From Desulfomonilia bacterium (GTDB lineage Bacteria > Desulfobacterota > Desulfomonilia > UBA1062): a DNA stretch of 64,000 nucleotides. The position numbers and the translations under genes were made by a program. The notes beneath the pieces were generated by a model. It worked only from the letters and a program-made list of their open reading frames with translations. It made no database searches and was not told where the DNA came from. The stretch spans positions 149,341-213,340 of the forward strand of contig JBEKDT010000001.1 in NCBI GenBank assembly GCA_050014195.1, given 5' to 3'. Shown in pieces: positions 1 to 15,110 of this stretch. Each line of letters begins with the position of its first letter. The first letter of the stretch is position 1.

Positions 1-59
1 TGAAGCTGAAATACGTTACTATCAGGAATATTTATGTCTATATATCTATAACAGGGTAA

Positions 60-145
60 TGCCTTGCACTCAATATCCGGATATACTGCAATCGTGCATC
101 AAATATTGGATATGCTGCAAAAGTGCAGTATAGTAATTGTTAGGC
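60..145 (+). other. candidate integron attI site (direct repeats plus simple site ending GTTAGGC)
   Basis: Near-identical direct repeats atatccggatatactgcaa (73-91) and atattggatatgctgcaa (103-120), small inverted repeat ctgcaaaagtgcag (115-128), and a GTTRRRY core GTTAGGC at 139-145. No L''/L' boxes of the array attC family are present. The R'' of the first attC (GCCTAAC, ~1287) is the reverse complement of this core. Confidence 0.4.
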
Positions 146-1286: not shown

Positions 1287-1343
1287 GCCTAACCATCGCA
1301 TCCACCGGACGGCTAAAGCCGCCGGTGATGCACATCGTTCGCC
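1287..1343 (+). repeat. attC 1
   Basis: R'' GCCTAAC, L'' caccggacgg, L' gccggtgatgc, R' GTTCGCC. R'' equals the revcomp of GTTAGGC at 139-145. Confidence 0.8.
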
Positions 1344-1361
1344 AAATAATCTGAGATTAAA

Positions 1362-2423
1362 ATGAGTACGCCAATAATAACAACATCTGATTCAATTAAA
1401 ATTGCAAGAGGTGTATTCGAGAGATCAAAGTACGAGGTTACTGAAGAATGCATTATAGACCTTTCAAAAAATATAACACTAGTAGAAGAAAAAGGTTTAT
1501 CCAAGTTAAACAATAGGCTGATTGCAGGCGGTAGACATATCCAGGATACACTAGTCGAGCATAATTATGCTGCCACAATATTACCTATTCTTGGACCTGA
1601 GGCATCTATCGAATATGAACCCGAGGGTTTACATCGACCTCCAGACTTTAAAATAGTTAGGGAAGGCATTACTTATTGGATTCAAATAAAAAATTTATCA
1701 ATATTGGAAAGAGAGAATCGGCAAGATAAGATTCTCCAAGAAATTGAGAGACAGATAAGAGAAATCGAAGTCGGGATGTTCCTTGGATGCCAACTCAATG
1801 ATGACTTTTCTAGAGATGATATCGAATCACTTTTAACTTTTGTTAGGAGTATTATTAATGAAGCTAATATAGGGCAAGCGTACTTCTTTCCAAATGAGTC
1901 AACACCCAAAGCAAAAATAGAATTCTGGCTTCCAAATAAATTACAATTATCTCATCTCACCTTGGGCATATCCGGTGACATTGATATTGTTGAACAGACA
2001 GGGCTTGCTCAAGAACAAATAAAAAACAGTATCGTTAATGCAGCAGGTGCTTTTAAATGGATTTCTGATGAAAAAACTATCAATCTCATAGCCATGGACT
2101 GTGGCCGATATGATGATATTGATATTTGTGATGCATTATTTGGAACAGAATATGATGAAATATCTCAGAGCGGTAGACATTGTTGGTGTCGAAAAGAAAA
2201 TGGTTTATTTAAAAAATCCCCGTATGATGAAACAGTATTCGGTGTGATTTCACTTAGGAAAAAAGATAAGTGGGCCCCTATTATTAGCACATATACAATG
2301 TCCTTTTTCTTGAATGATACTTATAAAGATTCTCTTGATTGTGTAACGAGCCTTTTCCCTTTCGTGATAATTGTTCAATATAATATGAGACCCCCTATAG
2401 GCCATGCCAATTTCATAATCTAA
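1362..2423 (+). CDS. hypothetical protein (possible PD-(D/E)xK-like core EYEPEG..PDFKI..IQIK); cassette 2
   Basis: 353-aa ORF filling the cassette between attC1 and attC2. It is AT-rich like cassette 1. No recognisable family; the nuclease-like motif is a weak visual match only. Confidence 0.6.
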   Translation: MSTPIITTSDSIKIARGVFERSKYEVTEECIIDLSKNITLVEEKGLSKLNNRLIAGGRHIQDTLVEHNYAATILPILGPEASIEYEPEGLHRPPDFKIVREGITYWIQIKNLSILERENRQDKILQEIERQIREIEVGMFLGCQLNDDFSRDDIESLLTFVRSIINEANIGQAYFFPNESTPKAKIEFWLPNKLQLSHLTLGISGDIDIVEQTGLAQEQIKNSIVNAAGAFKWISDEKTINLIAMDCGRYDDIDICDALFGTEYDEISQSGRHCWCRKENGLFKKSPYDETVFGVISLRKKDKWAPIISTYTMSFFLNDTYKDSLDCVTSLFPFVIIVQYNMRPPIGHANFII

Positions 2424-2454
2424 AAAATGGAATAAGATATTGGGGGAGAATAAA

Positions 2455-2514
2455 GGCGAACAAATCATTTCAGCGGACGCGGCGGGGCCGCGCCGCTGAT
2501 GCCCGCCGTTCGGT
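2455..2514 (+). repeat. attC 2
   Basis: R'' GGCGAAC (revcomp of the upstream R' GTTCGCC), L'' cagcggacg, L' gccgctgatgc, R' GTTCGGT. Confidence 0.85.
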
Positions 2515-2522
2515 GACAAGAT

Positions 2523-3584
2523 ATGATGAAATTGATTGATCTAGGTTTTGATCCCTGGTTTGAAGCACATGTCGATGACATGCGCCGAGAGGATCAAGGA
2601 ATTGCACGTGTGTCAGCAGTTGACCGCAACTCGTACATTATCAGGAATGAGATCAGAGAGATCCCAGCTGAACTTGCAGGGAAGTTCTATTTCCATGTTG
2701 AGTCCTCGATTGAGCTGCCATGTGTCGGCGATTGGGTCACCGTGCAGTATCATAATGATGACACCTCGGCAATCATCCATGGGATTTTTCCACGAAGGAC
2801 GTTTTTACGCCGCAAACGTGCCGGCGTAGAAGTGGACTACCAGATGATTGCAGCCAACATTGACATCGCTTTCATTGTCCAGTCATGTCACTTTGACTTT
2901 AATCTACCTAGACTGAATCGGTATTTAGTAATGGCAGCTGACGGACATGTTGAGCCGATTGTCATTCTTGCCAAGACGGACTTGATCTCCCACGATGAGC
3001 TGCAACAGAAGCTTGCGGCTATTAGACAGGCTGGCATCACGACGAGAGTTATTGCTCTCAGTAACATAACCGGCTCCGGGTTTGACGAATTCCAGCAGGT
3101 ATTAATGTCGGGGCGCACATATTGCCTGCTCGGGTCATCCGGAGTCGGCAAGACTACACTGATCAACCATCTGATTGGACGAGATGATCTTGATACTAAA
3201 GCTGTCAGTGGAACAGGAGAAGGCACACACACAACAGCGCGTCGGCAACTCATTGTTCTTGATAAAGGCATGATGTTCATTGATACACCTGGAATGAGAG
3301 AATTAGGCCTTCTGGGCGCCAGTGAGGGAGTAAACAAAGGGTTTGAAGATATTATTGAGCTTTCCATGACTTGTCGCTATGCCGATTGCAGCCATACTCA
3401 GGAATCAGACTGCGCAGTTCTTACTGCAATTACAAACGGCGAGTTGAGTGAAGAGCGCTATTCTAGTTATTTGAAACTCAGGAAAGAGTCAGAGCACTAT
3501 GAGATGTCGTACTTGGACAAACGTAAAAAGGACAGGGCATTCGGACGCTTCGTTAAGACAGCAAAGAAGAATATGAAAAAATGA
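2523..3584 (+). CDS. RsgA/YjeQ-family circularly permuted ribosome-biogenesis GTPase paralog; cassette 3
   Basis: N-terminal OB-like segment, then G4 (LAKTDL; AKTD in place of NKxD), G1 (GSSGVGKTTLIN) and G3 (DTPG) in permuted order. C-terminal zinc-finger motif CRYADCSHTQESDC. Bounded by attC2 and attC3. Confidence 0.8.
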   Translation: MMKLIDLGFDPWFEAHVDDMRREDQGIARVSAVDRNSYIIRNEIREIPAELAGKFYFHVESSIELPCVGDWVTVQYHNDDTSAIIHGIFPRRTFLRRKRAGVEVDYQMIAANIDIAFIVQSCHFDFNLPRLNRYLVMAADGHVEPIVILAKTDLISHDELQQKLAAIRQAGITTRVIALSNITGSGFDEFQQVLMSGRTYCLLGSSGVGKTTLINHLIGRDDLDTKAVSGTGEGTHTTARRQLIVLDKGMMFIDTPGMRELGLLGASEGVNKGFEDIIELSMTCRYADCSHTQESDCAVLTAITNGELSEERYSSYLKLRKESEHYEMSYLDKRKKDRAFGRFVKTAKKNMKK

Positions 3585-3593
3585 ATGCCGTGC

Positions 3594-3652
3594 ACCGAAC
3601 AATCGGCTCCAGCGGACGCGGTGAAACGCGCCGCTGACCCATGCCGTTCGGC
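3594..3652 (+). repeat. attC 3
   Basis: R'' ACCGAAC (revcomp of GTTCGGT), L'' cagcggacg, L' gccgctgac, R' GTTCGGC. Confidence 0.85.
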
Positions 3653-3668
3653 AGGTGAGGCGCTTATA

Positions 3669-4640
3669 ATGGCACCACGCAAAGAAGACATCCCGGAATG
3701 GCGTCAGTTCGAGCAATTAGTGGCCAGAATCGAGGCTGATGCTGGTCCTCTCGGTTTGATCGTGACTTCTCCTGATCGCATAAAGTGCAGGACCACTGGA
3801 CGCTTACGCGAGGTCGATGCAAGTGTGCGAACACAGATAGGGACATCGAGCATTCTGATCACGATTGAATGCCGGAAACGTCGAGTAAAGCAAGACGTTA
3901 CTTGGATTGAGCAACTTTCGACCAAAAAACATGCGATCGGGGCTGCCCGCACTATTGCCGTTAGTTCCTCCGGGTTTTCTCAGGAAGCTGAAGCAGCGGC
4001 CCTCCAGCACGGCATAGATCTGCGACGATTATCCGATGTATCCGCCGCAGAGATAAACGAACTAATAAGGCTAGATTTCGTTTTATTTACACACAAAAGA
4101 TGCGCCCTGGCTCGTGTTGGCCTCCGACTTTTCCGGTCTTTGGACTGGACGGTGCCCGATCCAGAAAACGTAGACCTTATTTTACCGCCAAGCACGGACC
4201 CGTTTGCCACTATCTTCAGGAATACGGAGACAGGAGCGACTTGGTCGCTCAATGACCTATGGCTGCAATTGCAAGAAGTAACTAATCCGTTTGCCGATGT
4301 CGAGAAGGGCTGCGCTCCAGTTATCAAAACTGCTTGTTTTCCTTTTCCTGGCAATGTCATCGTGAACACTCCAGACGGGCAGAAAAAGATTGGAGATGTG
4401 TTGCTTAGCGTGGCGCTGTCGCTTGAAGTGGAGCAAGTTGATCTGGAATCCGCCAAGAAAGTTGAATATACGTCTCCAGATGGTGCCGCGATCCAACGAG
4501 TGGAGTTTGCCTCTCGTGAACCCGGCGCAGAGGATTGGCATCTTTCGCTACAGATTCCCAAGGATTCAGTGGATATAAGCCAGCTCAGAACAGGAGGGAA
4601 CTGGCCAGTAACAAAGCAAACTGATCAAAAGGGCCACTGA
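3669..4640 (+). CDS. Mrr-like restriction-endonuclease-fold (PD-(D/E)xK) protein with an uncharacterised C-terminal domain; cassette 4
   Basis: N-terminal motif W..FEQLVARI...G......SPD......T......D...R......ILITIECRKR resembles the Mrr_cat nuclease core. RBS GGTGAGG precedes the ATG at 3669. The track ORF start at 3585 lies inside attC3 and is rejected. Confidence 0.6.
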   Translation: MAPRKEDIPEWRQFEQLVARIEADAGPLGLIVTSPDRIKCRTTGRLREVDASVRTQIGTSSILITIECRKRRVKQDVTWIEQLSTKKHAIGAARTIAVSSSGFSQEAEAAALQHGIDLRRLSDVSAAEINELIRLDFVLFTHKRCALARVGLRLFRSLDWTVPDPENVDLILPPSTDPFATIFRNTETGATWSLNDLWLQLQEVTNPFADVEKGCAPVIKTACFPFPGNVIVNTPDGQKKIGDVLLSVALSLEVEQVDLESAKKVEYTSPDGAAIQRVEFASREPGAEDWHLSLQIPKDSVDISQLRTGGNWPVTKQTDQKGH

Positions 4641-4684
4641 GTCGGTGGGTTCAATCTGCCAACTGCGCGTGCTGATAGCGATAA

Positions 4685-4743
4685 GCCGAACCAGTAAATT
4701 CAGCGGACGCAAAAAGCCGCGCCGCTGATGCCCACCGTTCGGT
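4685..4743 (+). repeat. attC 4
   Basis: R'' GCCGAAC (revcomp of GTTCGGC), L'' cagcggacg, L' gccgctgatgc, R' GTTCGGT. Confidence 0.85.
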
Positions 4744-4764
4744 GTCTAAGGAGGAGGCGTAATA

Positions 4765-5013
4765 ATGAATGGGAATAAAGGTGACCACCCATTAACAGAT
4801 ATCCTTATCCATAATATTGAAGTCTATGGCAAAGAAGCAGATGATCTGATTCGTAAGATTAGTTCCTTATCAAGCAGGAGAGAACTAGATGAGTGGTGGG
4901 AAAAGGAAATTAACTGGTCATCAGATAAAACACTAGCCTTACAGAAATCTCAATTGAGATACGAAGAACTTCTTGATCGAGCAAGAAAAAGTGGATGGGA
5001 AATTGATGAGTAA
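4765..5013 (+). CDS. hypothetical 82-aa protein; cassette 5
   Basis: Strong RBS AAGGAGGAGG. The ORF fills the cassette between attC4 and attC5. Confidence 0.6.
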   Translation: MNGNKGDHPLTDILIHNIEVYGKEADDLIRKISSLSSRRELDEWWEKEINWSSDKTLALQKSQLRYEELLDRARKSGWEIDE

Positions 5014-5015
5014 TC

Positions 5016-5109
5016 ACCGAACAAGCAAATCCAGCGGACCACTGGGGCCGTTTGTCCTTGCTGATTCAACGCTCACCTGCCCCAGTGGCCGCTGATCCGC
5101 ACGTTAGCC
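5016..5109 (+). repeat. attC 5 (long variant, ~94 bp)
   Basis: R'' ACCGAAC, extended stem ccagcggaccactgggg / ccccagtggccgctgat, R' GTTAGCC. Confidence 0.8.
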
Positions 5110-5116
5110 AGGAGAA

Positions 5117-5998
5117 GTGATGAATTATTTCTCATACAATACTGATGGTGGGCAACGTAGGTTCGATGTCCTAATCAAAAAAGGACTAGCTGCAACTAGT
5201 GGAGATGAGAAGTTTGGTAAACAACTTGGCAAGCTTAATATAGATGACATTCTTCTCATGTATGAGGATGGATTAGGAATTGTTGCCATCGGAGAAGTTC
5301 AAGAAGAATGGGACGGGAAACCTTATAGTAAACCCATATACTATATTCCCGGTAAAGAGTTTCCCGAAGGTGCAAATGAATATAGAATAAAGGTCAAATG
5401 GTTTCTAAATATCTCTGATTCTCCATTGAGCGTTAAGGAACTAAAAGAGCGTATTGGTTACATTCCACGTGGTGCAGTAACACCATTCATTAAATGGAGG
5501 TATGAGATTGAAAAAATTATTGCTGAACTTAGAGCTCGCAACCCAGAAACTGTTCAAGATGCTATTGATGATCTTGAATCTCATAAAAGAGAGTTTAAGT
5601 TACTCGATAAAACTGAGCAAGAGTCAATTATCAAAAGCCGAATTGGCCAAGGGATATTTCGAGAAGAGCTTATCAAAATCTGGGGTAGCTGTTCTGTAAC
5701 CGGGCTAACCAATCTTTCTCTGTTGCGGGCTTCTCATATAAAACCATGGCGGGAGTGCTCTAATCAGGAACGCTTAGATCCGATGAACGGACTTTTACTG
5801 CATCCTACTTTGGATCATTTGTTTGATTCTGGATTTGTCACATTTGATGCTGATGGGAAAATCCTTATATCAAGGAAGTTATCGGAAAAAGATGTTGAGA
5901 TCCTGCATATTGACCAAAATAGTTATTTGAGGATAATGCCACGAAGGTTAAAGAACTACATGCAGTATCATCGAAAGAATGTTTTTAAACCTGGCTAA
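5117..5998 (+). CDS. HNH (HNH_2-type) endonuclease fused to an N-terminal EVE/PUA-like putative modified-base-binding domain; cassette 6
   Basis: C-terminal motif LLRASHIKPW...NGLLLHPTLDHLFDSGFVTF is typical of the HNH_2 nuclease family. The N-terminal ~140 aa (DDILLMYEDGLGIVAIGEV ... YRIKVKW) has an EVE-like pattern. RBS GGAGAAG. Confidence 0.65.
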   Translation: MMNYFSYNTDGGQRRFDVLIKKGLAATSGDEKFGKQLGKLNIDDILLMYEDGLGIVAIGEVQEEWDGKPYSKPIYYIPGKEFPEGANEYRIKVKWFLNISDSPLSVKELKERIGYIPRGAVTPFIKWRYEIEKIIAELRARNPETVQDAIDDLESHKREFKLLDKTEQESIIKSRIGQGIFREELIKIWGSCSVTGLTNLSLLRASHIKPWRECSNQERLDPMNGLLLHPTLDHLFDSGFVTFDADGKILISRKLSEKDVEILHIDQNSYLRIMPRRLKNYMQYHRKNVFKPG

Positions 5999-6049
5999 CC
6001 AGCCACTTCAGCCGACGGGCTACGCCCGCGGCTGACCGGCACGTTGGGC
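5993..6049 (+). repeat. attC 6
   Basis: R'' GGCTAAC (revcomp of GTTAGCC), L'' cagccgacgg, L' gcggctgac, R' GTTGGGC. Confidence 0.8.
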
Positions 6050-6101
6050 ATAGAATCTGCGGGGACCACCGTTTCCTCGCTTTTTCAAAGGAGAATTCAA
6101 T

Positions 6102-6416
6102 ATGCGTTGGAATCATTACGTCTCTTACTTTTTTGGCGGAGCCTTTCTCACAAATGCGATCCCGCATTTTGTGAGCGGCGTTACAGGGCACCCTTTCCAA
6201 AGCCCTTTTGCCTCTCCCCCGGGGCAAGGGCTCTCTTCCGCCGTGGTGAATGTGCTTTGGGGCTCGCTCAACCTTGTTATCGGCTACTTGCTCGTATGCC
6301 GCATTGGACAATTTGAGTTGCGTCGGACAAGGCATGTTCTCATTGCGGGATTGGGGGGCCTACTCATGGCCGTGATGCTTGCGCATGTATTTGGTCGCTT
6401 CTATGGGGGGCTCTGA
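6102..6416 (+). CDS. small integral membrane protein (104 aa); cassette 7
   Basis: Three hydrophobic segments. RBS AAAGGAGAA. Confidence 0.6.
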   Translation: MRWNHYVSYFFGGAFLTNAIPHFVSGVTGHPFQSPFASPPGQGLSSAVVNVLWGSLNLVIGYLLVCRIGQFELRRTRHVLIAGLGGLLMAVMLAHVFGRFYGGL

Positions 6417-6433
6417 AATATGGGAAACGATTT

Positions 6434-6496
6434 GCCCAACAATTCATTCCAGCGGACGGGCCACACGGTGGCCCGCCGCTGAATTTGTCGTTGGGC
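6434..6496 (+). repeat. attC 7
   Basis: R'' GCCCAAC (revcomp of GTTGGGC), L'' cagcggacgg, L' gccgctgaa, R' GTTGGGC. Confidence 0.85.
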
Positions 6497-6532
6497 ATAA
6501 TACGTAATTTATGATTCTTAGGGAGAACTATC

Positions 6533-7333
6533 ATGAAAGTTCTAGCGCTCAATGGAAGTCTTCGGGGTGACAGGGGAGCTACAGGTAAGATTCTTCAGAG
6601 TATGGGTGCGGGCGTCGAGAGGGCAGGTGGAATTTGGAATGTGGTTCATCTTTCGGAACTAAAGATTGAAACTTGCCGCGCATGCAATCACTGTCAGAGA
6701 ACAAAAACTTATAAATGTATCTTTGACGGTAAAGACGACGCCGAAGAGATCTTCAACAAGATGAGGGGTACGGATATTCTGATTTATGCATCTCCCGTTT
6801 ATGTGTTTGGTGTGTCAAGTCTTCTCAAACGTTTTCTTGAGAGAATTCATTCTCGCGCTCCTGTTGCGGAGATTCTATTAACGAAATCCGGATTATTCTT
6901 TCATGCCACAGATCAATCACTTTCAGGCAAACCTTTCATTTCCATAGTAGTGTGCGACAATATTGAAAATCTCACAGTTCGCAATACGAAAGAGTACTTC
7001 CGAATTTTTGGACGCTTCATGGACGCGCCACATGTGGCACATATGGAACGTCGGAGTGCGGCGGCATGGATGGCCGCACTGGAAGGAACCGGCAAACAGG
7101 CGAAAAATAATGCAGAGAACGTTCTGGCTGCCTATGTACGCGTGGGAGAGGAATTGGTGTTAAAAGGAAGCATCTCGAGAAAATCGAAGAAAATTACAGA
7201 GCGGCCTTTCATAAAAATTCCACTTCCGGTGCGTATGGGACGGCACATTCCAGCATTCAAACCTTTTATTGAAAAGGAAGTTCGCAGACGGTCGAGTAAA
7301 ATAAGCAGCATGATTGGAGTAAAAGGAGAGTAA
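6533..7333 (+). CDS. iron-sulfur flavoprotein (Isf-like, NADPH-dependent FMN reductase fold); cassette 8
   Basis: MKVLALNGSLRGD N-terminus of the flavodoxin-like reductase family, plus the compact Cys motif CRACNHCx7C. RBS AGGGAGAA. Confidence 0.65.
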   Translation: MKVLALNGSLRGDRGATGKILQSMGAGVERAGGIWNVVHLSELKIETCRACNHCQRTKTYKCIFDGKDDAEEIFNKMRGTDILIYASPVYVFGVSSLLKRFLERIHSRAPVAEILLTKSGLFFHATDQSLSGKPFISIVVCDNIENLTVRNTKEYFRIFGRFMDAPHVAHMERRSAAAWMAALEGTGKQAKNNAENVLAAYVRVGEELVLKGSISRKSKKITERPFIKIPLPVRMGRHIPAFKPFIEKEVRRRSSKISSMIGVKGE

Positions 7334-7358
7334 ATGTGGACGGTTCTACCAGTGGCTG

Positions 7359-7421
7359 GCCGAACCAGTCAATCTAGCTGACCCGGCGCAAGCGCCGGGC
7401 AGTTGATCTCCGCCGTTATGC
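7359..7421 (+). repeat. attC 8
   Basis: R'' GCCGAAC (one mismatch to revcomp of GTTGGGC), L'' tagctgacccggcgc, L' gcgccgggcagttgatc, R' GTTATGC. Confidence 0.75.
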
Positions 7422-7446
7422 ACCTCCAGTTTCAATATTTCGAGCA

Positions 7447-7475
7447 TTGTTAATAATGACAGTTAAGGCTATATT
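7447..7475 (+). promoter_or_regulatory. cassette-internal sigma70-like promoter for brnTA
   Basis: TTGTTA, 17-bp spacer, TATATT, located ~20 bp upstream of the BrnT start. Confidence 0.45.
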
Positions 7476-7494
7476 AAATGTGAAATGAGGAAGC

Positions 7495-7776
7495 ATGCTT
7501 ATTTTTGAGTGGGACCCAGAGAAAGCAAAAAGTAACTTAAAGAATCACAGGGTGTCCTTCGATGAAGCGAGTACTGTTTTCAGCGATACTATGTCTTTGA
7601 CAATTCATGATCCTCTCCATTCAGATGAAGAAGATAGATTTGTCATTATCGGGAATTCATACAAGAACCGTCTTGTACTGGTTGTTCATGTCGAGAGGGG
7701 CAACAGAATAAGGATTATCAACGCAAGGAAAGCGACAAGGAAGGAAAAGAAACAATATGAAGAGAATGAAAACTGA
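7495..7776 (+). CDS. brnT: BrnT-family (DUF497) type II toxin ribonuclease; cassette 9
   Basis: MLIFEWDPEKAKSNLKNHRVSFDEASTVF...RIINARKATRKEKK matches the BrnT signature. It overlaps the downstream antitoxin ORF. Confidence 0.8.
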   Translation: MLIFEWDPEKAKSNLKNHRVSFDEASTVFSDTMSLTIHDPLHSDEEDRFVIIGNSYKNRLVLVVHVERGNRIRIINARKATRKEKKQYEENEN

Positions 7777-7966
7777 TCCAGAGATGTTGGAAGAATATGA
7801 TTTCAGCAAAGGTATCAGGGGAAAATATGCACAAAAGTATTCAGAAGGAACAAACGTTGTTGTAATTGAACCTGATGTTTCAAAGTTTTTCCCTGATCAT
7901 GATTCTGTAAATCAAGCTCTCAGGTCTTTAGCTGACATCATCAAAGGGCAGAAAAAAACTGCATAA
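7757..7966 (+). CDS. brnA: BrnA-family antitoxin; cassette 9
   Basis: EYDFSKGIRGKYA motif of BrnA antitoxins. A 20-nt overlap with brnT gives the toxin-first operon typical of BrnTA. Confidence 0.7.
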   Translation: MKRMKTDPEMLEEYDFSKGIRGKYAQKYSEGTNVVVIEPDVSKFFPDHDSVNQALRSLADIIKGQKKTA

Positions 7967-8092
7967 CAAGCCAATGCACCGGACCGCAAACAGCTCGGGG
8001 GCATGCTTCCGGCCCTGCTCCGCCTTCAGTCCAGTGGTGCATTCTGGTTTGGTGCTCCGCTCCGTTTGCGGCAGGTGATCCGCACGTTGGGC
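7961..8092 (+). repeat. attC 9 (long variant, ~130 bp)
   Basis: R'' GCATAAC (revcomp of GTTATGC), L''-like ccggaccgcaaacag, L'-like ccgtttgcggcaggtgatccgc, R' GTTGGGC. Confidence 0.7.
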
Positions 8093-8110
8093 TCAACAGA
8101 GGATAATAAC

Positions 8111-8524
8111 ATGCTGAATAGATCTCTTATCATTGTGATATGTTTTTCATTGATTTCTTGTTCAAACCTTAGAGAAAATGAAAAGATCAATCAAAATAAT
8201 TATAAAAAAACTGATTCAGACGTGAAGCTTTTAGAGTTGTCAAAAGAGGCGTTAACAACATTTCTTAAAAGCCGTCTCACAGCATCTGGATGGACAATAA
8301 CAGTTAATCCTGACAAAAATATAGTTGAGACTAACTGGTATAGAGAACACAAAGGAGAGGTTGTTGTAAAATCTGAAATCAGGATTCATGAGGGACTTAT
8401 CCGTGTAGATGTATGGCAACGTGTTGGATTACTATTTACTTCTGATATTAAGAACGAAAGAACTAGATATTTTGAGTGGGCTATACAAAAACAAATAGAG
8501 AAAACACGTTCACAGTCTCAATAA
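8111..8524 (+). CDS. lipoprotein (138 aa); cassette 10
   Basis: Signal peptide with lipobox LISC. RBS GAGGA. The track start at 8003 lies inside attC9 and is rejected. Confidence 0.6.
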   Translation: MLNRSLIIVICFSLISCSNLRENEKINQNNYKKTDSDVKLLELSKEALTTFLKSRLTASGWTITVNPDKNIVETNWYREHKGEVVVKSEIRIHEGLIRVDVWQRVGLLFTSDIKNERTRYFEWAIQKQIEKTRSQSQ

Positions 8525-8526
8525 AA

Positions 8527-8583
8527 GCCCAACCATGGCATCCCCCGGACGGCTTACAGCCTCCGCTGATCCGCCCGTTATGC
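8527..8583 (+). repeat. attC 10
   Basis: R'' GCCCAAC (revcomp of GTTGGGC), L'' cccggacgg, L' ccgctgatccgc, R' GTTATGC. Confidence 0.85.
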
Positions 8584-8629
8584 AACGAAAGAAAAAGGCA
8601 TGTATCAGTAAATGAGGGTGGGGGTCATC

Positions 8630-9151
8630 ATGCAAAAAGAAGAAGATCACTCTGGAGAATTGGGCAAAAAATTTGCCGCTGTATGTGGCCTTTACTGTGA
8701 GGCGTGCTCATGGTTCATTGCCACCACTGAAGATCCTGAAAGGCTCAAAAGGCTTGCGGCACAATTGCATTTTTCGGAGGAAGAGAGCAAGTGCTATGGA
8801 TGCCGGTCGGACAAGAGGTTGCCTTATTGCGAGAAATGCAAGATGTTCGCTTGCGCAGCTGAACGAGGTATCGACTTTTGCAGCGAATGTGAAGAGTATC
8901 CCTGCGACGACCTAAAACAGTTTCAATCTGCAATGCCTCATCGGATCGAGCTTTGGGCCAATCTGGAACGAATCAAGTCTATTGGTTATAAACATTGGCT
9001 CAAGGAAATTCGGGAAAACTATGCCTGCCCACGGTGCCACATCATCAATTCCACCTACGACTTGAAATGTAGAAAGTGCGGCGAAGAGCCTAGCTGCAAT
9101 TACGTAGCCAAACACCAGCAGGTAATCGAGGAGTATTTGAAGAGTAGATGA
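8630..9151 (+). CDS. cysteine-rich DUF3795-like protein; cassette 11
   Basis: CGLYCEACSWF...CYGC...CEKCKMFACAAERGIDFCSECEEYPC pattern. The start may be 8612 or 8630. Confidence 0.6.
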   Translation: MQKEEDHSGELGKKFAAVCGLYCEACSWFIATTEDPERLKRLAAQLHFSEEESKCYGCRSDKRLPYCEKCKMFACAAERGIDFCSECEEYPCDDLKQFQSAMPHRIELWANLERIKSIGYKHWLKEIRENYACPRCHIINSTYDLKCRKCGEEPSCNYVAKHQQVIEEYLKSR

Positions 9152-9158
9152 TGGGGTC

Positions 9159-9256
9159 GCCGGGGTCTCAACATATGACAAATTTGTTGATTGTTGAGAC
9201 CCTGACCCCGGTGCTTCGCCCGACGTTTTGCCTGCCTGTGATTTGCGACGTTATGT
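9159..9256 (+). repeat. atypical recombination-site-like element (nested palindrome plus degenerate attC ending GTTATGT)
   Basis: Perfect nested palindrome ggggtctcaaca..acaaatttgt..tgttgagacccc (~9161-9213). It is followed by cgcccgacg / cctgtgatttgcgac (weak L''/L') and GTTATGT at 9250-9256. The expected R'' GCATAAC is absent. Confidence 0.4.
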
Positions 9257-9272
9257 GAAGGAGAATAAAAGA

Positions 9273-9692
9273 ATGAGAGATGCGAGCAAAACAATTGGCA
9301 ATCTGATCGAAAGAGCAAGCGTTTCTATTATCAGTTCCGTTGATGAAGACGGTTTTCCTAATTCAAAGGCAATGCTTCCACCGAGGAAAAGGGAAGGCAT
9401 AAAGCATATCTTCTTCACGACCAATACATCCTCAATGAGAGTAAGGCAATATCTCAATAACCCGAAAGCGTGCGTATATTTCTTTGATAATAGATTCTTC
9501 AAGGGCATTATGCTGAGGGGCACCATGGAAGTCCTGCATGATAGCGCATCTAAGGAAATGATCTGGAAGCATGGCGACGAAATGTATTATCCAAAGGGTG
9601 TAACTGATCCCGATTACTGCGTGCTCAGGTTCACTGCTCAAAGTGGAAGGTATTACAGCAATTTTAAATCTGAGAATTTTGAAGTTGAGTAG
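9273..9692 (+). CDS. pyridoxamine 5'-phosphate oxidase-like FMN-binding protein; cassette 12
   Basis: Split-barrel PNPOx-family pattern (SVDEDGFPNSKAM...ACVYFFD...MLRGTMEVL). RBS GAAGGAGAA. Confidence 0.6.
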   Translation: MRDASKTIGNLIERASVSIISSVDEDGFPNSKAMLPPRKREGIKHIFFTTNTSSMRVRQYLNNPKACVYFFDNRFFKGIMLRGTMEVLHDSASKEMIWKHGDEMYYPKGVTDPDYCVLRFTAQSGRYYSNFKSENFEVE

Positions 9693-9706
9693 AGACCCAA
9701 GCTATC

Positions 9707-9770
9707 ACATAACCAGCGCATCCAGGCAGACGCGTCGTGTCCGCCGCGCCGCTGATTCGCAATGTTCGGT
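9707..9770 (+). repeat. attC 12
   Basis: R'' ACATAAC (revcomp of GTTATGT at 9250; one mismatch to the revcomp of GTTATGC at 8577), L' gccgctgattcgc, R' GTTCGGT. Confidence 0.75.
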
Positions 9771-9904
9771 ACACTTGATTGGATCGTCATCGTGACAAGA
9801 GGGTGTTCTTTTGTTGCTGCATATCTGAGCGCTCATAGTTGTTTTCCGTTCGCTGCTTTTCAGGCGTACGGTCAGCCAATATAGAGAATGCTGGAGGATG
9901 AACC

Positions 9905-10198
9905 ATGAACGACAATTTCGAAAAGAGGCTTTGGGCCGCAGCGCTGGCAGGATGGTGGACCTTGCTGGTGGCCGCAGGGGTTCTGATGCTTCAGTGGATC
10001 GTCTACCTGCTGGTTATGTCCGGACGACCCATGTGGTTTCTTTCCCTCTGGGGGCCTGATGTCAGCTGGCATGACGTTCATAACATCTGGTTTCTGGGCT
10101 TAGGGTTCTTCAAGGTCTGCTTGCTACTTTTGGCGGTTGTGGTTCTCTGGCTTACCTTGTGGGCCAGGCGATTACGAAAAGGGGCTGGCAGTTCATGA
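9905..10198 (+). CDS. small membrane protein (97 aa); cassette 13
   Basis: Trp-rich hydrophobic helices. RBS GGAGGATGA. Preceded by a 135-nt untranslated leader. Confidence 0.55.
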   Translation: MNDNFEKRLWAAALAGWWTLLVAAGVLMLQWIVYLLVMSGRPMWFLSLWGPDVSWHDVHNIWFLGLGFFKVCLLLLAVVVLWLTLWARRLRKGAGSS

Positions 10199-10294
10199 AG
10201 TCTTGAATTCGCTCTCGCTCGCTTTTCCACAAACAGTCAGGTCGTCGCTGCGATCGCAATTAGAGAGCAAAGGACGGAGTTATCTCGTAAGTGC

Positions 10295-10314
10295 GCCCAA
10301 CTAGGGCGTTGGGT
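10295..10314 (+). repeat. minimal R''/R' inverted pair (possible attC remnant)
   Basis: GCCCAAC-tagggc-GTTGGGT with no L boxes. It sits between two ORFs that may belong to a single cassette. Confidence 0.3.
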
Positions 10315-10334
10315 CAAAGGAAGGAGATACAAGA

Positions 10335-10757
10335 ATGTTCAGAAGAATAGTGTGTTTTGCAGTCATTGGACTTGTCCTTGGTACTGCTGCTCTCATGGCT
10401 GACGAATCCGATAGGGGGAAGGCTGCAGTTGCTTCAGCTGAAGAATGGCTTGGAATTGTTGATGAAGGTAACTATATTGAGAGCTGGAAGGAATCGTCTG
10501 AATATTTTCAGCAAGCCATCAAACAGGATCAGTGGGAACAAGCAGTTCAGGCGGTACGGAAGCCCCTCGGCAAATTGGTTTCAAGGAAAGTGATGAGTGC
10601 CTCATACAGAACGTCTCTCCCGGGAGCACCCGATGGGCAGTATGTGGTAATCAAATTTAACACCTGGTTCGAGAATAAAAAATCAGCTATTGAGACAGTT
10701 ACTCCAAAGATGGACAAAGATGGGATGTGGAGAGTTTCCGGTTACTACATCAAATGA
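10335..10757 (+). CDS. secreted DUF4019-like protein; cassette 13/14
   Basis: Signal peptide, then EEWLGIVDEGNY..SW..S...FQ pattern. Strong RBS AAGGAAGGAGA. Confidence 0.55.
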   Translation: MFRRIVCFAVIGLVLGTAALMADESDRGKAAVASAEEWLGIVDEGNYIESWKESSEYFQQAIKQDQWEQAVQAVRKPLGKLVSRKVMSASYRTSLPGAPDGQYVVIKFNTWFENKKSAIETVTPKMDKDGMWRVSGYYIK

Positions 10758-10823
10758 AGACCAGACAATGGCATCCTCGCGGATGCGGGCTGCGCCAGCG
10801 CCGCTGATGCCTGGCTGTTCGAC
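10757..10823 (+). repeat. attC 14
   Basis: Degenerate R'' ACCAGAC (two mismatches to the revcomp of GTTCGGT at 9764), L'' catcctcgcggatgcggg, L' gcgccagcgccgctgatgc, R' GTTCGAC. Confidence 0.7.
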
Positions 10824-10831
10824 GGAGAGAA

Positions 10832-11500
10832 ATGAAGAAGAAAACATTGCTGAGTTGGAGTAGCGGGAAGGACAGCGCATGGGCGCTTCACCTGCTCCAA
10901 CAAGATCCGCAGATTGAGCTTCTCGGCATGTTTACTGTAATGAATCAAAAATACAGTCGTGTGTCGATGCACGCCACCCGGTTGGAGATGCTTCAGCGTC
11001 AAGCCGAGGCAGTAGGTCTGCCGATCCAAACGATCAGTCTTCCCGACCCGTGCACAAACGAGCAATACGACGCTATCATGCGACACTTCGTCACCGAGTC
11101 TGTCAACAAGGGGATTGAGTGCATGGCATTCGGAGATCTGTTCCTTGAGGACGTCCGAAAGTATCGGGAGAATCAACTGAAAGGGAGTGGGATCGATCCT
11201 CTTTTCCCGTTGTGGGGAATCCCCACGAGCGACCTGGCTGAGCAAATGTTGTCAGCAGGACTCGAAGCCTATGTCAGCAGTGTTGATCTCAAGAAATTGC
11301 CTTCGCGTTTTGCCGGACAAAAATGGTCAAGGGACTTGATTGTGGAATTTCCCAAGGATTGCGACCCATGTGGAGAGAACGGGGAAATCCACACGGTCGC
11401 CGTGGGCGGCCCGATGTTTCGGAAAACAGTCCTTGTCAAAGTCGGCGACGTGGTGAATCGAAAAGGATTTGCTTACGCTGACATCATTCCGATTAACTGA
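10832..11500 (+). CDS. PP-loop ATP pyrophosphatase of the MJ0570/Dph6-like family (ATP_bind_4); cassette 15
   Basis: N-terminal LLSWSSGKDS PP-loop. Length and architecture match diphthine-ammonia-ligase-like enzymes. Confidence 0.65.
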   Translation: MKKKTLLSWSSGKDSAWALHLLQQDPQIELLGMFTVMNQKYSRVSMHATRLEMLQRQAEAVGLPIQTISLPDPCTNEQYDAIMRHFVTESVNKGIECMAFGDLFLEDVRKYRENQLKGSGIDPLFPLWGIPTSDLAEQMLSAGLEAYVSSVDLKKLPSRFAGQKWSRDLIVEFPKDCDPCGENGEIHTVAVGGPMFRKTVLVKVGDVVNRKGFAYADIIPIN

Positions 11501-11507
11501 AACGACT

Positions 11508-11565
11508 GTCGAACCAAGGAGTGCAGGCGATGCGATACCCGCGAGCCTGACTCCTGCCGTTGGAG
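11508..11565 (+). repeat. attC 15
   Basis: R'' GTCGAAC (revcomp of GTTCGAC), L''-like gcaggcgatgcg, L' gcgagcctgactcc, R' GTTGGAG. Confidence 0.75.
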
Positions 11566-11572
11566 GTTTGCA

Positions 11573-12121
11573 ATGACCCAAGCATTGTTACTCATAGACA
11601 TTCAGAACGATTACTTCCCTGGCGGGGCAATGGAACTAGTGGGAAGTTCTCCTGCTGCGGCGCAGGCCGGGAAACTACTTCAGGCGTTCAGACAAAAAGC
11701 GCTGAGCGTTATCCACATCCAACACATCTCGACAAGACCAGGAGCGACCTTCTTTTTGCCGAATACCGCTGGGGTACAAATTCACGAGAGCGTAGCTCCC
11801 AACAGTGGCGAAACGGTCTTTCAGAAACACTACCCGAACAGCTTTCGTGAAACACGTCTGCTTGAGCACCTTCGTGAGAATCAAATCTCGCAGCTTGTGA
11901 TCGCAGGGATGATGACCCATATGTGCATTGACACTACCTCACGTGCTGCCACCGACCTTGGCTTCCCGTGCGTTCTGGCTCATGACGCATGCGCTACAAG
12001 AGCTCTGTCGTTTAATGGCGCTACTGTTTCTGCTCAGAGCGTACAAACAGCATTCCTCGCAGCCCTTAATGGCCTGTTTGCCGAAGTGCTGTCAGTGGAG
12101 GAAATATGCACCAACCTCTAA
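11573..12121 (+). CDS. isochorismatase-family cysteine hydrolase; cassette 16
   Basis: ALLLIDIQNDYF N-terminus, and a catalytic Cys in MMTHMCIDTT. Confidence 0.75.
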   Translation: MTQALLLIDIQNDYFPGGAMELVGSSPAAAQAGKLLQAFRQKALSVIHIQHISTRPGATFFLPNTAGVQIHESVAPNSGETVFQKHYPNSFRETRLLEHLRENQISQLVIAGMMTHMCIDTTSRAATDLGFPCVLAHDACATRALSFNGATVSAQSVQTAFLAALNGLFAEVLSVEEICTNL

Positions 12122-12178
12122 CGAGCTGATCCGGCAGACCGGGGCTAAGCCCCGCGCCGCTGATACCTGCCGTGAGAG
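12116..12178 (+). repeat. attC 16 (mutated R' box GTGAGAG)
   Basis: R'' CTCTAAC, L'' cagaccgggg, L' ccccgcgccgctgatacc. The R' reads cGTGAGAG, whereas GTTAGAG is expected from the next cassette's R'' CTCTAAC. Confidence 0.7.
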
Positions 12179-12190
12179 GGCAAGGACCCT

Positions 12191-12988
12191 ATGCAACCAG
12201 TGCAACAGAAATGGAATGCTGAGGATTACGCGAAGAATTCTTCGGCACAGCTACAGTGGGCGCAGGAGCTTATTTCAAAACTCTTCTTGCAGGGTTGCGA
12301 ATCTGTGCTTGATATCGGATGCGGAGATGGGAAGATCAGCGCCCAACTTGCGCTGGCTGCCAAGAACGGAAACGTGCTGGGCATTGATCTATCTGAAGAC
12401 ATGATTCGGCTTGCCTCAGAGCAGTTTCCTTCAGCGAAATACCCCAACCTGTCTTTCTTGCGTATGGACGCAACAGGCATTCGCCTTTCTGAGAGATTCG
12501 ACGTCGCATTCTCAAACGCCGCCCTTCATTGGGTGAAAAACCATATTGCAGTTCTTCGAGGCGTGCATGCCTGCCTCAAGTCCGGTGGCAAGATATTGTT
12601 TCAGATGGGCGGCCGCGGAAACGCAACTGAGGTTTTTGGCGCCATTGAGAAAGTTTTACGGCACCCTCGGTGGCGGCGGTACTATAAAGACTTCACACCA
12701 CCCTACCACTTTTATGGACCGGAAGAATATGAAGCCTGGCTATTGGAAAGCGGTTTTCGCTCGGTACGTGTTGAACTCGTGCCAAAAGATATGCAGCATG
12801 GTGCGGAGGGGTTTAAGGGTTGGCTACGGACAACTTGGTTCCCCTATACCGACCGCTTGCCGGTCGAACTGCGCGATGCCTTTCTTGCGGAAGTGGTCGA
12901 GACTTATACGGCGGTAAATCCGTTTGACGCTCTCGGCCATACACACGTCAAAATGGTCCGTTTGGAGGTCGAGGCGTATGCCCTCTAA
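12191..12988 (+). CDS. trans-aconitate methyltransferase (Tam)-like SAM-dependent methyltransferase; cassette 17
   Basis: W.AEDY...S..Q..WA N-terminus, SAM motif LDIGCGDG, and Tam-like length and C-terminal region. Confidence 0.65.
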   Translation: MQPVQQKWNAEDYAKNSSAQLQWAQELISKLFLQGCESVLDIGCGDGKISAQLALAAKNGNVLGIDLSEDMIRLASEQFPSAKYPNLSFLRMDATGIRLSERFDVAFSNAALHWVKNHIAVLRGVHACLKSGGKILFQMGGRGNATEVFGAIEKVLRHPRWRRYYKDFTPPYHFYGPEEYEAWLLESGFRSVRVELVPKDMQHGAEGFKGWLRTTWFPYTDRLPVELRDAFLAEVVETYTAVNPFDALGHTHVKMVRLEVEAYAL

Positions 12989-13040
12989 CAATTCGCTCAA
13001 CGCGGACGTGCAAAAGCGCCGGTTAGCTCAAACGTTATGT
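12983..13040 (+). repeat. attC 17
   Basis: R'' CTCTAAC, L'' cgcggacg, L' caaaagcgccgg, R' GTTATGT. Confidence 0.7.
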
Positions 13041-13059
13041 GGCAAATGGGAGAAGACAA

Positions 13060-13743
13060 ATGGCTTACACTTTGGAAAAAGTAGTTCCTTGGGGACGATC
13101 TTTCGACGAATATTTGGCAATGTTTGCATTGTCGGAAGAAGACCTTAGAAAGCGGTTACTAGGATGTGGAGACGGTCCCGCAAGCTTTAATTGTATGATG
13201 AAACGTCGTGGAGGCCATGTAGTTTCTGTCGATCCGATTTACACTTTCAGTGCCGGTGAAATAAGAAGTCGGATAGATGAAACATATGAAGAGGTTATGG
13301 AACAAGCTAGAAAAAACAAACATGAGTTCGTGTGGAGACATATCTCATCAGTTGATGAACTCGGCAAAGTTCGTATGTCTGCTATGAACGACTTTTTGTC
13401 TGATTATGCAGTAGGTTTAAAAGAAGGTCGTTATGTAGACGCGAGTTTGCCTACGCTTCCATTCTCAGATCGAGAATTTGACATTGCTTTATGTTCGCAC
13501 TTTCTCTTTCTTTACAGCGAGCACCTTTCAGAAGATTTTCATATCCAGTCAATTGAAGAACTCTGCCGAGTTGCATCTGAAGTAAGGATATTCCCTCTGT
13601 TGGAGTTGGGAGCCAAAGAATCAAGACATCTCAAGATAGTCGTGGATAGACTTGAAAAAGGTGGTTTTGTTGTCGATATGAAGAAAGTGCCTTATGAGTT
13701 TCAAAAAGGTGGAAACGAAATGTTGAGGGTTACAGCCACATAA
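13060..13743 (+). CDS. class I SAM-dependent methyltransferase; cassette 18
   Basis: LGCGDGPASFN motif I and acidic motif II. RBS GGGAGAAG before the ATG at 13060. Confidence 0.6.
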   Translation: MAYTLEKVVPWGRSFDEYLAMFALSEEDLRKRLLGCGDGPASFNCMMKRRGGHVVSVDPIYTFSAGEIRSRIDETYEEVMEQARKNKHEFVWRHISSVDELGKVRMSAMNDFLSDYAVGLKEGRYVDASLPTLPFSDREFDIALCSHFLFLYSEHLSEDFHIQSIEELCRVASEVRIFPLLELGAKESRHLKIVVDRLEKGGFVVDMKKVPYEFQKGGNEMLRVTAT

Positions 13744-13807
13744 CAAATCAATGCACCTGAGAGCAAATCGCTGTGCGATTTCCGGCAAGTGATTTCTGCC
13801 GTTGGAG
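13738..13807 (+). repeat. attC 18
   Basis: R'' ACATAAC (revcomp of GTTATGT), stem gagcaaatcgc / gcgatttc, R' GTTGGAG. Confidence 0.75.
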
Positions 13808-13824
13808 GTCCGTTGGAGATAACA

Positions 13825-14397
13825 ATGAATCAGAAAAAATATGCGCTGATCATAATTGATATGCAAAATGATTTTGTTTTATCTGGTACACCAGCGTGCG
13901 TTGCTGGTGCTTATGCCACGATCCCGTGTATAAAAAGGTTGCTTGATTTTTACAGGGCAAATGGATGGCCGGTATTTCATGTCATACGGGAATATCGTGC
14001 AGATGGAAGTGATATCGAGTTTACCCGCCTCCAGGGTTTTCTTAACAACAAGCGCTATGCAGTGCCTGGCACGAAAGGTTGTGAAATTGTGGAAAGCCTT
14101 GCACCAGTTGAAGGAGAGTATAGGGTCATAAAGAATAGATTCAGTGGTTTTATGAATACGGAGTTAGATTTTATGTTGAGAAGGGTCGGGGCAACGCACC
14201 TGGTCATATGCGGAACTCAGTATCCTAACTGTGTCCGGGCTACTATCTTTGATGCCATTGCATATGGGTATCCTGTAATCAACATTACCGATGCCACATC
14301 AGCACAGACTCCACAAATTGCAGATGCAAATATCGTAGATTTAAAGAATATCGGAGTTGACTGTATTTCGTTAGATGAGTTTATGAAATTATTCTGA
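13825..14397 (+). CDS. isochorismatase-family hydrolase (second, divergent copy); cassette 19
   Basis: ALIIIDMQNDF and LVICGTQYPNCVRAT catalytic-Cys region. Confidence 0.75.
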   Translation: MNQKKYALIIIDMQNDFVLSGTPACVAGAYATIPCIKRLLDFYRANGWPVFHVIREYRADGSDIEFTRLQGFLNNKRYAVPGTKGCEIVESLAPVEGEYRVIKNRFSGFMNTELDFMLRRVGATHLVICGTQYPNCVRATIFDAIAYGYPVINITDATSAQTPQIADANIVDLKNIGVDCISLDEFMKLF

Positions 14398-14411
14398 AAT
14401 GGGAGAGAATC

Positions 14412-14472
14412 TCTCCAACAAACGAAGCACCGGACGGGGCAAGCGCCAGGCCGATGATCTCCGTCGTTATGC
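14412..14472 (+). repeat. attC 19
   Basis: R'' CTCCAAC (revcomp of GTTGGAG), L'' caccggacgg, L' gccgatgatc, R' GTTATGC. Confidence 0.85.
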
Positions 14473-14503
14473 GCCAGTATTAGTAGAATATAGGTGATAG
14501 CAA

Positions 14504-14989: not shown

Positions 14990-15049
14990 CAAGGGCATCC
15001 AGGCGGAAGCGGGCTGCCCAGCGCCGCCGCTGATGCACACCGTTATCTC
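14984..15049 (+). repeat. attC 20 (R' box GTTATCT)
   Basis: R'' GCATAAC (revcomp of GTTATGC), L'' ccaggcggaagcggg, L' gccgccgctgatgc, R' GTTATCT. Confidence 0.8.
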
Positions 15050-15067
15050 CCAATATTCAATCCCTGC

Positions 15068-15110
15068 TTGACATTCAAAATGGTATGATTAATTATCATA
15101 CCGGAGGCGG
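15068..15110 (+). promoter_or_regulatory. mazEF cassette promoter with palindromic operator
   Basis: TTGACA at 15068-15073. Near-perfect palindrome GTATGATTAATTATCATAC (15083-15101) overlaps the -10 region, and RBS GGAGG lies 5 nt before the ATG. Confidence 0.5.

Follow-up and report, generated by a model that had tools for sequence, protein, structure and literature searches.

The 64-kb window analysed here, i.e., the whole 64,000-nt stretch of contig JBEKDT010000001.1 from a Desulfomonilia bacterium, contains an array of integron attC sites, and the third cassette of this array carries a single gene whose product belongs to the RsgA/YjeQ family of GTPases. The array, the cassette and the parts of the gene are located as follows.

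1287–16206, + strand: attC array of 17 confident and 3 weaker sites (covariance model R1)
2455–2514, + strand: upstream attC site, part of the preceding cassette; R'' GGCGAAC, R' GTTCGGT (2508–2514); 64.7 bits
2509–3646, + strand: gene cassette of 1138 bp, starting at the TT of the upstream R' and ending at the G of its own R' (computed boundaries)
2509–2522, + strand: 14-nt leader TTCGGTGACAAGAT, read from the sequence, which leaves no room for a promoter
2523–3584, + strand: open reading frame (ORF) of the RsgA-like (RsgA2-type) GTPase, ATG start, 353 amino acids
2595–2822, + strand: N-terminal OB-fold domain, approximately residues 25–100, predicted from the secondary structure of an AlphaFold2 model and superposition on RsgA structures
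2970–2981, + strand: G4 motif A150-K151-T152-D153, read from the DNA
3132–3155, + strand: G1 motif (P-loop) GSSGVGKT, residues 204–211; GSSGVGK followed by T or S in 79 of 79 cassette-clade genes
3228–3236, + strand: switch I H236-T237-T238; T238 invariant, H236 and T237 nearly invariant in the subfamily
3282–3293, + strand: G3 motif DTPG, residues 254–257; DTPG in 79 of 79 cassette-clade genes
3372–3413, + strand: zinc finger CRYADCSHTQESDC with ligands C284, C289, H291 and C297, type CCHC (Cys3-His)
3450–3578, + strand: long C-terminal helix, residues 310–352, with a K/R-rich tail (AlphaFold2 model and sequence)
3594–3652, + strand: the cassette's own attC site; R'' ACCGAAC, L'' CAGCGGAC, L' GCCGCTG, R' GTTCGGC; 62.3 bits

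The stretch from 2509 to 3646 is a genuine single-gene, promoterless integron cassette, which bears out an earlier note on this DNA that had placed the gene between two attC sites. Both flanking sites have the box order R''-L''...L'-R', reading GGCGAAC...CAGCGGAC...GCCGCTGA...GTTCGGT upstream and ACCGAAC...CAGCGGAC...GCCGCTGA...GTTCGGC in the cassette's own site, which begins 10 nt past the stop codon, and the bottom strand of each forms an imperfect hairpin in which a T of the L box stays unpaired. Folding with DNA parameters gave z-scores of -3.5 for 2455–2514 and -3.8 for 3594–3652, and none of 200 shuffled sequences folded as well. The crossover between the G and the TT of the upstream R' falls between 2508 and 2509. 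Within the leader, GGTGA at -11 to -7 is a plausible and likely Shine-Dalgarno sequence that would overlap the R' box.

The covariance model R1 was built from 15 attC sites of the window, and the scores of the two flanking sites are partly obtained by construction because both belong to this training set. Independent support for them comes from the hairpin folds and from the occurrence of the same attC behind the gene in other genomes. R1 finds 20 attC sites; they all lie on the + strand within 1287–16206, and 5 of them are outside the training set. In the other 48 kb of the window, it finds nothing besides two weak reverse-strand echoes of palindromic sites. A different scan, which required R''/R' complementarity and a strong fold, was dropped: it missed most of the sites in the window and performed no better on related loci than on controls (6/79 and 11/600, respectively). 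This failure is explained by the origin of the 3' half of R' in the next cassette, and covariance models were used instead.

The window protein matches the Pfam profile RsgA_GTPase (PF03193) over residues 88–263 with an E-value of 2.2e-44 and 151.7 bits (cutoff, 30 bits), and it scores 159.2 bits (cutoff, 100 bits) with the NCBIfam model TIGR00157, "ribosome small subunit-dependent GTPase A." The cutoffs of the full-length RsgA equivalogs are missed (172 of 360 bits for NF008931 and 107 of 483 bits for NF008932). The motifs stand in the circularly permuted order G4-G1-G3, and DTPG is followed by Met, a hydrophobic residue that replaces the catalytic Gln. The four zinc ligands are invariant in 131 subfamily sequences and also in 79 of 79 cassette-clade genes; since one of them is His291, the finger is of the CCHC type and not the C4 type named in the earlier note.

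An AlphaFold2 model of the window protein, built on the 131-sequence alignment, has a mean predicted local distance difference test score (pLDDT) of 89.4 and a predicted template modeling (pTM) score of 0.83. In a Foldseek search, the model resembles 30S-bound E. coli RsgA (7boi_W and 5no2_Z) over approximately 305 columns, with target-normalised template modeling (TM) scores of 0.79–0.80 and 26% identity, and the next matches are all other solved RsgA/YjeQ/YloQ structures. The superposition on the 30S-bound structures indicates that the OB domain, the GTPase domain and the zinc finger are all present. In the model, three short helices specific to the subfamily (residues 4–20) lie ahead of the OB domain. 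The C-terminal tail is rich in Lys and Arg (36% over residues 325–353), and past approximately residue 322 it aligns with nothing in canonical RsgA, alignments to which stop at residues 318–330. Taken together, the profiles, motifs and predicted fold agree with the earlier description of a full-length RsgA-family protein with an OB domain and permuted GTPase motifs, and they identify the window protein as an RsgA-fold protein with, as far as sequence and model can tell, every catalytic and structural element of RsgA.

When solved structures are compared by sequence, canonical RsgAs rank first, with approximately 108 bits. Closer relatives were found in a 50%-clustered library of 1.84 billion proteins, in which 2913 representatives match at E <= 1e-30; the best 150 of these 2913 are mostly 340–370 amino acids long and share 34–56% identity at 228 bits or more, and most of them align over nearly the whole query, the C-terminal tail included. 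A tblastn search of PLSDB located the ~350-amino-acid type on secondary replicons or plasmids of Pseudoalteromonas, Vibrio, Shewanella, Stenotrophomonas, Lysinibacillus and Brevibacillus. Two further PLSDB records, NZ_CP030101.1 (2.9 Mb) and NZ_CP093325.1 (5.5 Mb), are labelled as plasmids and are actually the whole chromosomes of Listeria monocytogenes and Bacillus sp., respectively. Each of these chromosomes carries a canonical rsgA and a second copy.

Listeria monocytogenes FDAARGOS_57: canonical gene 529350–530216, second copy 628–1602
Bacillus sp. N5-665: canonical gene 1544584–1545462, second copy 3606823–3607839

The canonical genes were located with a B. subtilis YloQ query, which was validated by an 82% match to the annotated rsgA of B. 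velezensis in the pknB-rsgA-rpe operon. RsgA had been described in the earlier note as a single-copy factor; the two chromosomes above, each with a second copy of ~350 amino acids, and the annotated gene name rsgA2 of L. plantarum (lp_1687) speak against this description. The window protein matches the second copies of Listeria, Bacillus and Vibrio over the full length with 197–221 bits and 35–37% identity, whereas canonical RsgA is matched only over the GTPase and zinc parts with 96–116 bits. In a neighbour-joining tree, the cassette clade lies inside the second-copy clade, apart from the canonical Firmicute and E. coli proteins. By sequence, the window protein is a member of the ~350-amino-acid second-copy, or RsgA2-type, branch of the RsgA/YjeQ family, and the term "paralog" used earlier is a reasonable one in view of the equivalog scores and the second-copy clade. 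The literature searched contains no functional study of a second-copy RsgA and no paper that links RsgA to integrons.

A 35%-identical RsgA2-type gene of V. alginolyticus (NZ_CP135970.1, labelled as a plasmid; locus L092, 108237–117244) lies among small co-oriented genes that are separated by Vibrio-type repeats (TAACAAAC...AAGAGTGATTCA...), a context that looks like a superintegron array. A possible attC of ~115 nt follows the stop codon of this gene. The link of the RsgA2-type subfamily to integrons may be wider than the cassette lineage described here.

Relatives of the window protein fall into more than 120 distinct 90%-identity protein clusters at 84–95% identity, with names that include Syntrophales, Desulfobulbaceae, Nitrospiraceae and Thermodesulfovibrionales. 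In GTDB contigs (one genome per species), 527 stretches encode a relative, and all locus counts given below refer to the best 80 of these 527. The 80 proteins share 72–96% identity with the window protein over the full length and come from at least eight phyla, with carriers in Desulfobacterota, Nitrospirota, Chlorobiaceae, Bacteroidales, Verrucomicrobiota, Kiritimatiellae, Omnitrophota, Thiotrichaceae and Bacteriovoracaceae. The closest copies, from Nitrospiraceae and other lineages, are 95–96% identical; in contrast, canonical RsgA shows 55% identity between Bacillus and Listeria and 44% for Staphylococcus. The number of synonymous substitutions per site (dS) relative to the window copy is as low as 0.14–0.21 in a Nitrospiraceae genome and in other delta-proteobacterial genomes. 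The ratio of nonsynonymous to synonymous substitution rates (dN/dS), calculated for 78 comparisons with the window copy, is 0.12 at the median and at most 0.23, which indicates purifying selection on the RsgA-like gene; a pseudogene or decaying copy was rejected on the basis of these values and the intact motifs.

At the DNA level, 72 of the 80 loci have nothing but the cassette in common with the window, and none of the neighbouring cassette proteins of the window recurs beside the gene in the 80 loci, i.e., no conserved neighbour or partner cassette was found. The boundaries of the cassette are shared by many of the copies. The 5' junction GTTCGGTGACAA, with no more than 2 mismatches, stands directly before the start codon in 53 loci (0.16% of random positions), and the R'' box CACCGAAC directly follows the stop codon in 36 (1.2% by chance). 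Even in distant hosts, the attC behind the gene can be recognised as the same one (ACCGAAC-AA.CGGCTCCAGCGGACGCG...GCTGACCCATG.CGTT), and two more flavours occur in the clades of 72–77% identity. With a second attC model (R2), built from 56 matches in other genomes, we obtained 134 attC matches, 132 of which lie on the strand of the gene, the remaining 2 being reverse-strand echoes of + strand matches. At least one attC was found by R2 in 48 of the 80 loci, at least two were found in 23, and one abuts the gene in 31; the values of 48 and 31 are lower bounds, since both models were trained on the attC type of this array and miss other types.

The contexts of the copies are varied. A Nitrospira metagenome-assembled genome (MAG; locus L025) holds a complete integron, in which the gene and a divergent integron integrase (TIGR02249, 473 bits; cutoff, 265 bits) are 6.6 kb apart with attC sites in between; when the window and all loci were scanned for tyrosine-recombinase motifs, this integrase was the only one found. 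Two solitary cassettes, directly after rpoC/yajQ-like genes (L016, 9206–11162) and directly after gap-pgk genes (L053, 7891–11163), have an intact GTTCGGTGA junction and a downstream attC, and both seem to have inserted at secondary sites that are not part of an array. In several Chlorobiaceae copies, no attC was detected with R2. No second rsgA was found in the 64-kb window, in the 7.5 kb upstream or in the flanks of the 80 loci, which are the stretches covered by this search. One MAG with the RsgA-like cassette (L020) also carries a second cassette of the window, encoding a PNPOx-like protein (13582–14041, corresponding to 9249–9709 of the window; 92% nucleotide identity), which suggests that several cassettes circulate in the same gene pool. 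IMG/VR contains no close relatives of the window protein, and the matches in phage GenBank records are distant (29–39% identity) and mostly in short unannotated Listeria or metagenomic "phage" records. The shared leader and attC, the identity across phyla, the unrelated neighbours and the varied contexts argue for a long-lived mobile cassette rather than recent trapping of a host gene. Likewise, cross-phylum identity, unrelated neighbours and clustering with second copies set the window gene apart from a gene inherited vertically at a stable core locus.

The array itself starts, as seen in longer metagenome contigs with the identical gene, one cassette before the window ORF at 1362. Upstream of the array, the same contig carries rubrerythrin-like, M48 peptidase, GAF, GAPDH and CarB genes; downstream are an aminotransferase, an EngB-like GTPase and then DnaE, IMPDH, ribosomal protein S1 and HtrA. 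The array is thus bordered by core genes, and the IMPDH has 100% identity with proteins of MAGs named as Desulfomonilia bacteria. No integron integrase was found within 7.5 kb upstream or anywhere in the 64-kb window, the tyrosine-recombinase motif scan included, and the array, with its approximately 20 cassettes, is therefore a chromosomal cluster of attC sites lacking integrase (CALIN). By the criterion of more than 10 cassettes (Darracq et al., bioRxiv 10.1101/2024.07.02.601686), it would rank among the sedentary chromosomal integrons. At its start (window 46–145), the direct repeats ATATCCGGATATACTGCAA (73–91) and ATATTGGATATGCTGCAA (103–120) are followed by GTTAGGC at 139, which is the start of the first cassette. 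This segment looks like a possible attI-type site or remnant whose integrase gene is gone, a loss suggested by the core genes that lie upstream on the same contig.

The cassette directly upstream of the RsgA-like cassette (1338–2508; ORF 1362–2423) encodes a 353-amino-acid protein without a Pfam or PADLOC match, and a counterpart of this protein was found in none of the 80 related loci. The cassette directly downstream (3647–4737) encodes a restriction-endonuclease-like protein of the Mrr_cat type; its ORF as called starts inside the attC (3585), and the real start is probably the ATG at 3660, behind AGGTGAGG. Other cassettes have a defence- or addiction-like appearance, namely, those with a trypsin-like peptidase with a weak PADLOC PDC-S45 match (209–1267), an HNH nuclease (5117–5998; PADLOC HNH, 1.4e-27), a BrnT/BrnA pair (7495–7966) and a MazE/MazF pair (approximately 15114–15679). 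Further cassettes encode GNAT, glyoxalase, isochorismatase and methyltransferase proteins. Outside the array, the window has one tRNA gene (32593–32663) and a stretch of low G+C content at 60000–63000 (0.33–0.35, compared with ~0.5 elsewhere) with a Wzy_C O-antigen-ligase-like ORF (61415–62632), which is probably a horizontally acquired surface-polysaccharide segment.

We favour the reading, with a probability of roughly 0.6, that the cassette is an old, self-contained mobile unit encoding a functional RsgA2-type accessory GTPase that binds the 30S subunit. The unit consists of the leader, the ORF and its own attC, and many anaerobic lineages of sediment and groundwater would have exchanged it among their integrons through integron integrases. 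The anatomy and mobility of the cassette, the purifying selection, the fold and motifs and the place in the subfamily are shown by the analysis. We infer that the protein uses the OB domain, the zinc finger and the basic tail to bind the small ribosomal subunit and that it hydrolyses GTP on the subunit, so that a recipient might gain an additional or reserve factor that acts as a checkpoint or in release during 30S maturation and would be useful under some stress. The accessory factor proposed in the earlier note is still the best reading, by analogy with the relatives of the gene.

Several points weigh against this reading. In 32 of the 80 relatives, neither model detects an attC; these may be fixed chromosomal copies, or their attC types may be ones that the models miss. 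The array has neither an integrase nor an identified cassette promoter (Pc), and expression of the third cassette is only presumed. The neighbour-joining tree carries no support values, and its E. coli root sequence was checked over residues 96–333 only. The accessory status of the window gene is drawn from its relatives. Moreover, ribosome-assembly factors are atypical cargo for integron cassettes.

In another reading, the cassette GTPase might be a horizontally traded ribosome-targeting module that alters the behaviour of the recipient's 30S subunits under attack, through either protection of the decoding centre against natural antibiotics that bind the 30S subunit or phage-triggered shutdown of translation; we consider this rather unlikely, but if it were true, the gene would be the first translation-apparatus GTPase shown as adaptive integron cargo. 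In its antiphage form, the GTPase would act as an abortive-infection effector that on infection locks or dissociates small subunits and stops translation. An abundance of defence cassettes has been reported for chromosomal integron arrays (bioRxiv 10.1101/2024.07.02.601686), and the neighbours described above (trypsin-like protease with the weak PDC-S45 match, Mrr-type nuclease, HNH nuclease, BrnT and MazF) look to be of that kind. The protein itself, however, gives only P-loop-level matches in PADLOC-DB 2.0 (LeoA, E = 0.0015; mad8, E = 0.0038), has no sensor domain and has no conserved partner gene; close relatives are absent from IMG/VR, in Listeria and Bacillus, the related second copies sit in the chromosome as ordinary genes, and a GTPase goes unmentioned in the integron-defence work cited above and in a second integron paper. 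A role as a defence effector is therefore unlikely.

Selection could also act on a small-molecule phosphatase activity, i.e., metabolite proofreading, and not on ribosome assembly. CpgA, the Bacillus RsgA ortholog, dephosphorylates the toxic metabolite 4-phosphoerythronate, a moonlighting role that is kept in Firmicute orthologs (PMC12445079). Several close homologs of the window protein are named "ribosome biogenesis GTPase / thiamine phosphate phosphatase" by JGI, and stand-alone enzymes, such as those of the GNAT, glyoxalase, isochorismatase and methyltransferase cassettes of this array, are typical cassette cargo. On the other hand, the OB domain, zinc finger and basic tail are strongly constrained, and a pure phosphatase would not need them; E. 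coli RsgA, moreover, lacks the moonlighting role, which is thus not family-wide (PMC12445079). We regard a phosphatase as the selected activity as improbable.

Ribosome protection, in which the protein would displace or exclude 30S-targeting antibiotics at the decoding centre and so serve as a mobile tolerance gene, is quite improbable. Aminoglycosides interfere with the ribosome-stimulated GTPase activity of RsgA, resistance genes are classically carried by integron cassettes, and the predicted fold matches that of RsgA bound at the 30S decoding region, all of which speak for such a role; the hosts are environmental anaerobes, and the array has no resistance gene, which speak against it.

The G4 motif of the window protein was read in the earlier note as AKTD in place of NKxD, and the loss of the Asn was taken as a possible change of nucleotide specificity. 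The reading of the motif stands. Ala is the first G4 residue in 108 of 120 close homologs of the window protein, so the change is fixed and not a sequencing error. A switch of specificity, e.g., to ATP, could draw on this fixation but is very unlikely for several reasons. In Ras-like GTPases, the Asp of NKxD sets guanine specificity, and loss of the Asn chiefly lowers affinity. The corresponding D153 is nearly invariant and K151 is invariant in the 131 subfamily sequences. The first position is Thr or Ser in canonical Bacillales RsgA as well (TKMD in B. velezensis and SKMD in Listeria and Bacillus sp., as seen in the retrieved sequences), and it is S, N or T about equally often in the 150 subfamily representatives. 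Within the 79 cassette-clade genes, the motif is AKTD in 43, TKTD in 35 and TKSD in 1, and 41 of the 43 AKTD carriers belong to the group of at least 78% identity; this distribution indicates that Ala arose from Thr in a single step inside the lineage, and no other motif changed with it. From these comparisons, AKTD is best described as a tolerated T-to-A variant at an already relaxed G4 position; any effect of it most likely stops at nucleotide affinity or exchange rate and leaves base specificity unchanged. The second copy of Bacillus sp. N5-665 (L091, 3606823–3607839) has TKSS at G4, in which the guanine-specificity Asp itself is replaced; by its sequence, this protein is more promising than the window protein as a candidate for a change in nucleotide use.

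The other explanation offered in the earlier note, that the core rsgA of the host itself was recently trapped by two flanking attC sites, could appeal to the TIGR00157 assignment and to the lack of another rsgA in the 64-kb window but is extremely improbable, because the gene has its own attC and 5' junction that are conserved across hosts, is shared at 72–96% identity across phyla among different neighbours (95–96% with Nitrospiraceae and other copies, compared with 55% for canonical RsgA even within Bacillales), groups with second copies in the tree, and scores far below the cutoffs of the full-length RsgA equivalogs.

Accessory mobile DNA thus carries a relative of a "core" ribosome-assembly factor through hundreds of species and at least eight phyla under strong purifying selection, which points to the RsgA second-copy subfamily (Listeria, Bacillus and Vibrio) being favoured by selection in its own right. 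Integron cassettes and RsgA paralogs are each of known kinds; what stands out is a ribosome-assembly-type GTPase as cross-phylum cassette cargo, which is unreported in the literature searched. Most environmental integron cassettes are of unknown function, and the RsgA-like cassette offers a recognisable fold and testable biochemistry. If a benefit in antibiotic tolerance, phage defence or stress-specific ribosome maturation were true, it would represent a new class of integron cargo; if none were, it would simply be a well-documented cassette family.

The integron phage-defence cassettes described by Darracq et al. (bioRxiv 10.1101/2024.07.02.601686) use the same vehicle and lie in a similar array context rich in nucleases, proteases and toxins; no GTPase is mentioned among them, and the window protein matches no defence model. 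Canonical RsgA/YjeQ/CpgA proteins (E. coli RsgA, 5NO2 and 7BOI; B. subtilis YloQ, 1T9H) have the same fold of OB domain, permuted GTPase and CCHC zinc finger as predicted for the window protein, together with the same P-loop, the His-Thr-Thr of switch I and a DTPG followed by a hydrophobic residue. Their identity to the window protein is only 22–27% in structural alignments and 30–33% by BLASTP. The basic N-terminal extension of E. coli RsgA is absent from the window protein, which instead has its own three short N-terminal helices, a long basic C-terminal helix and AKTD at G4. Canonical rsgA occupies a core locus, e.g., pknB-rsgA-rpe in Bacillus, whereas the window gene lies on a mobile cassette.

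The second copies (L. monocytogenes FDAARGOS_57 and Bacillus sp. N5-665, with L. plantarum lp_1687 by name only) are closer in architecture, being ~350 amino acids long and alignable end to end with the window protein, tail included, and in Listeria and Bacillus they coexist with canonical rsgA in the same genome. They differ from the cassette in being chromosomal, with no attC detected beside the Listeria copy, and in the G4 motif, which is TKAD, or TKSS in the Bacillus copy, in place of AKTD. With regard to the vehicle, cassettes of sedentary chromosomal integrons and CALINs, such as the Vibrio superintegrons, likewise consist of a promoterless single ORF and an attC with a bottom-strand hairpin and likewise form co-oriented arrays with interspersed toxin-antitoxin cassettes. 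The window array has no integrase, and whereas the usual integron cargo is a small protein of unknown function, the cargo here is a 353-amino-acid homolog of a translation-apparatus factor.

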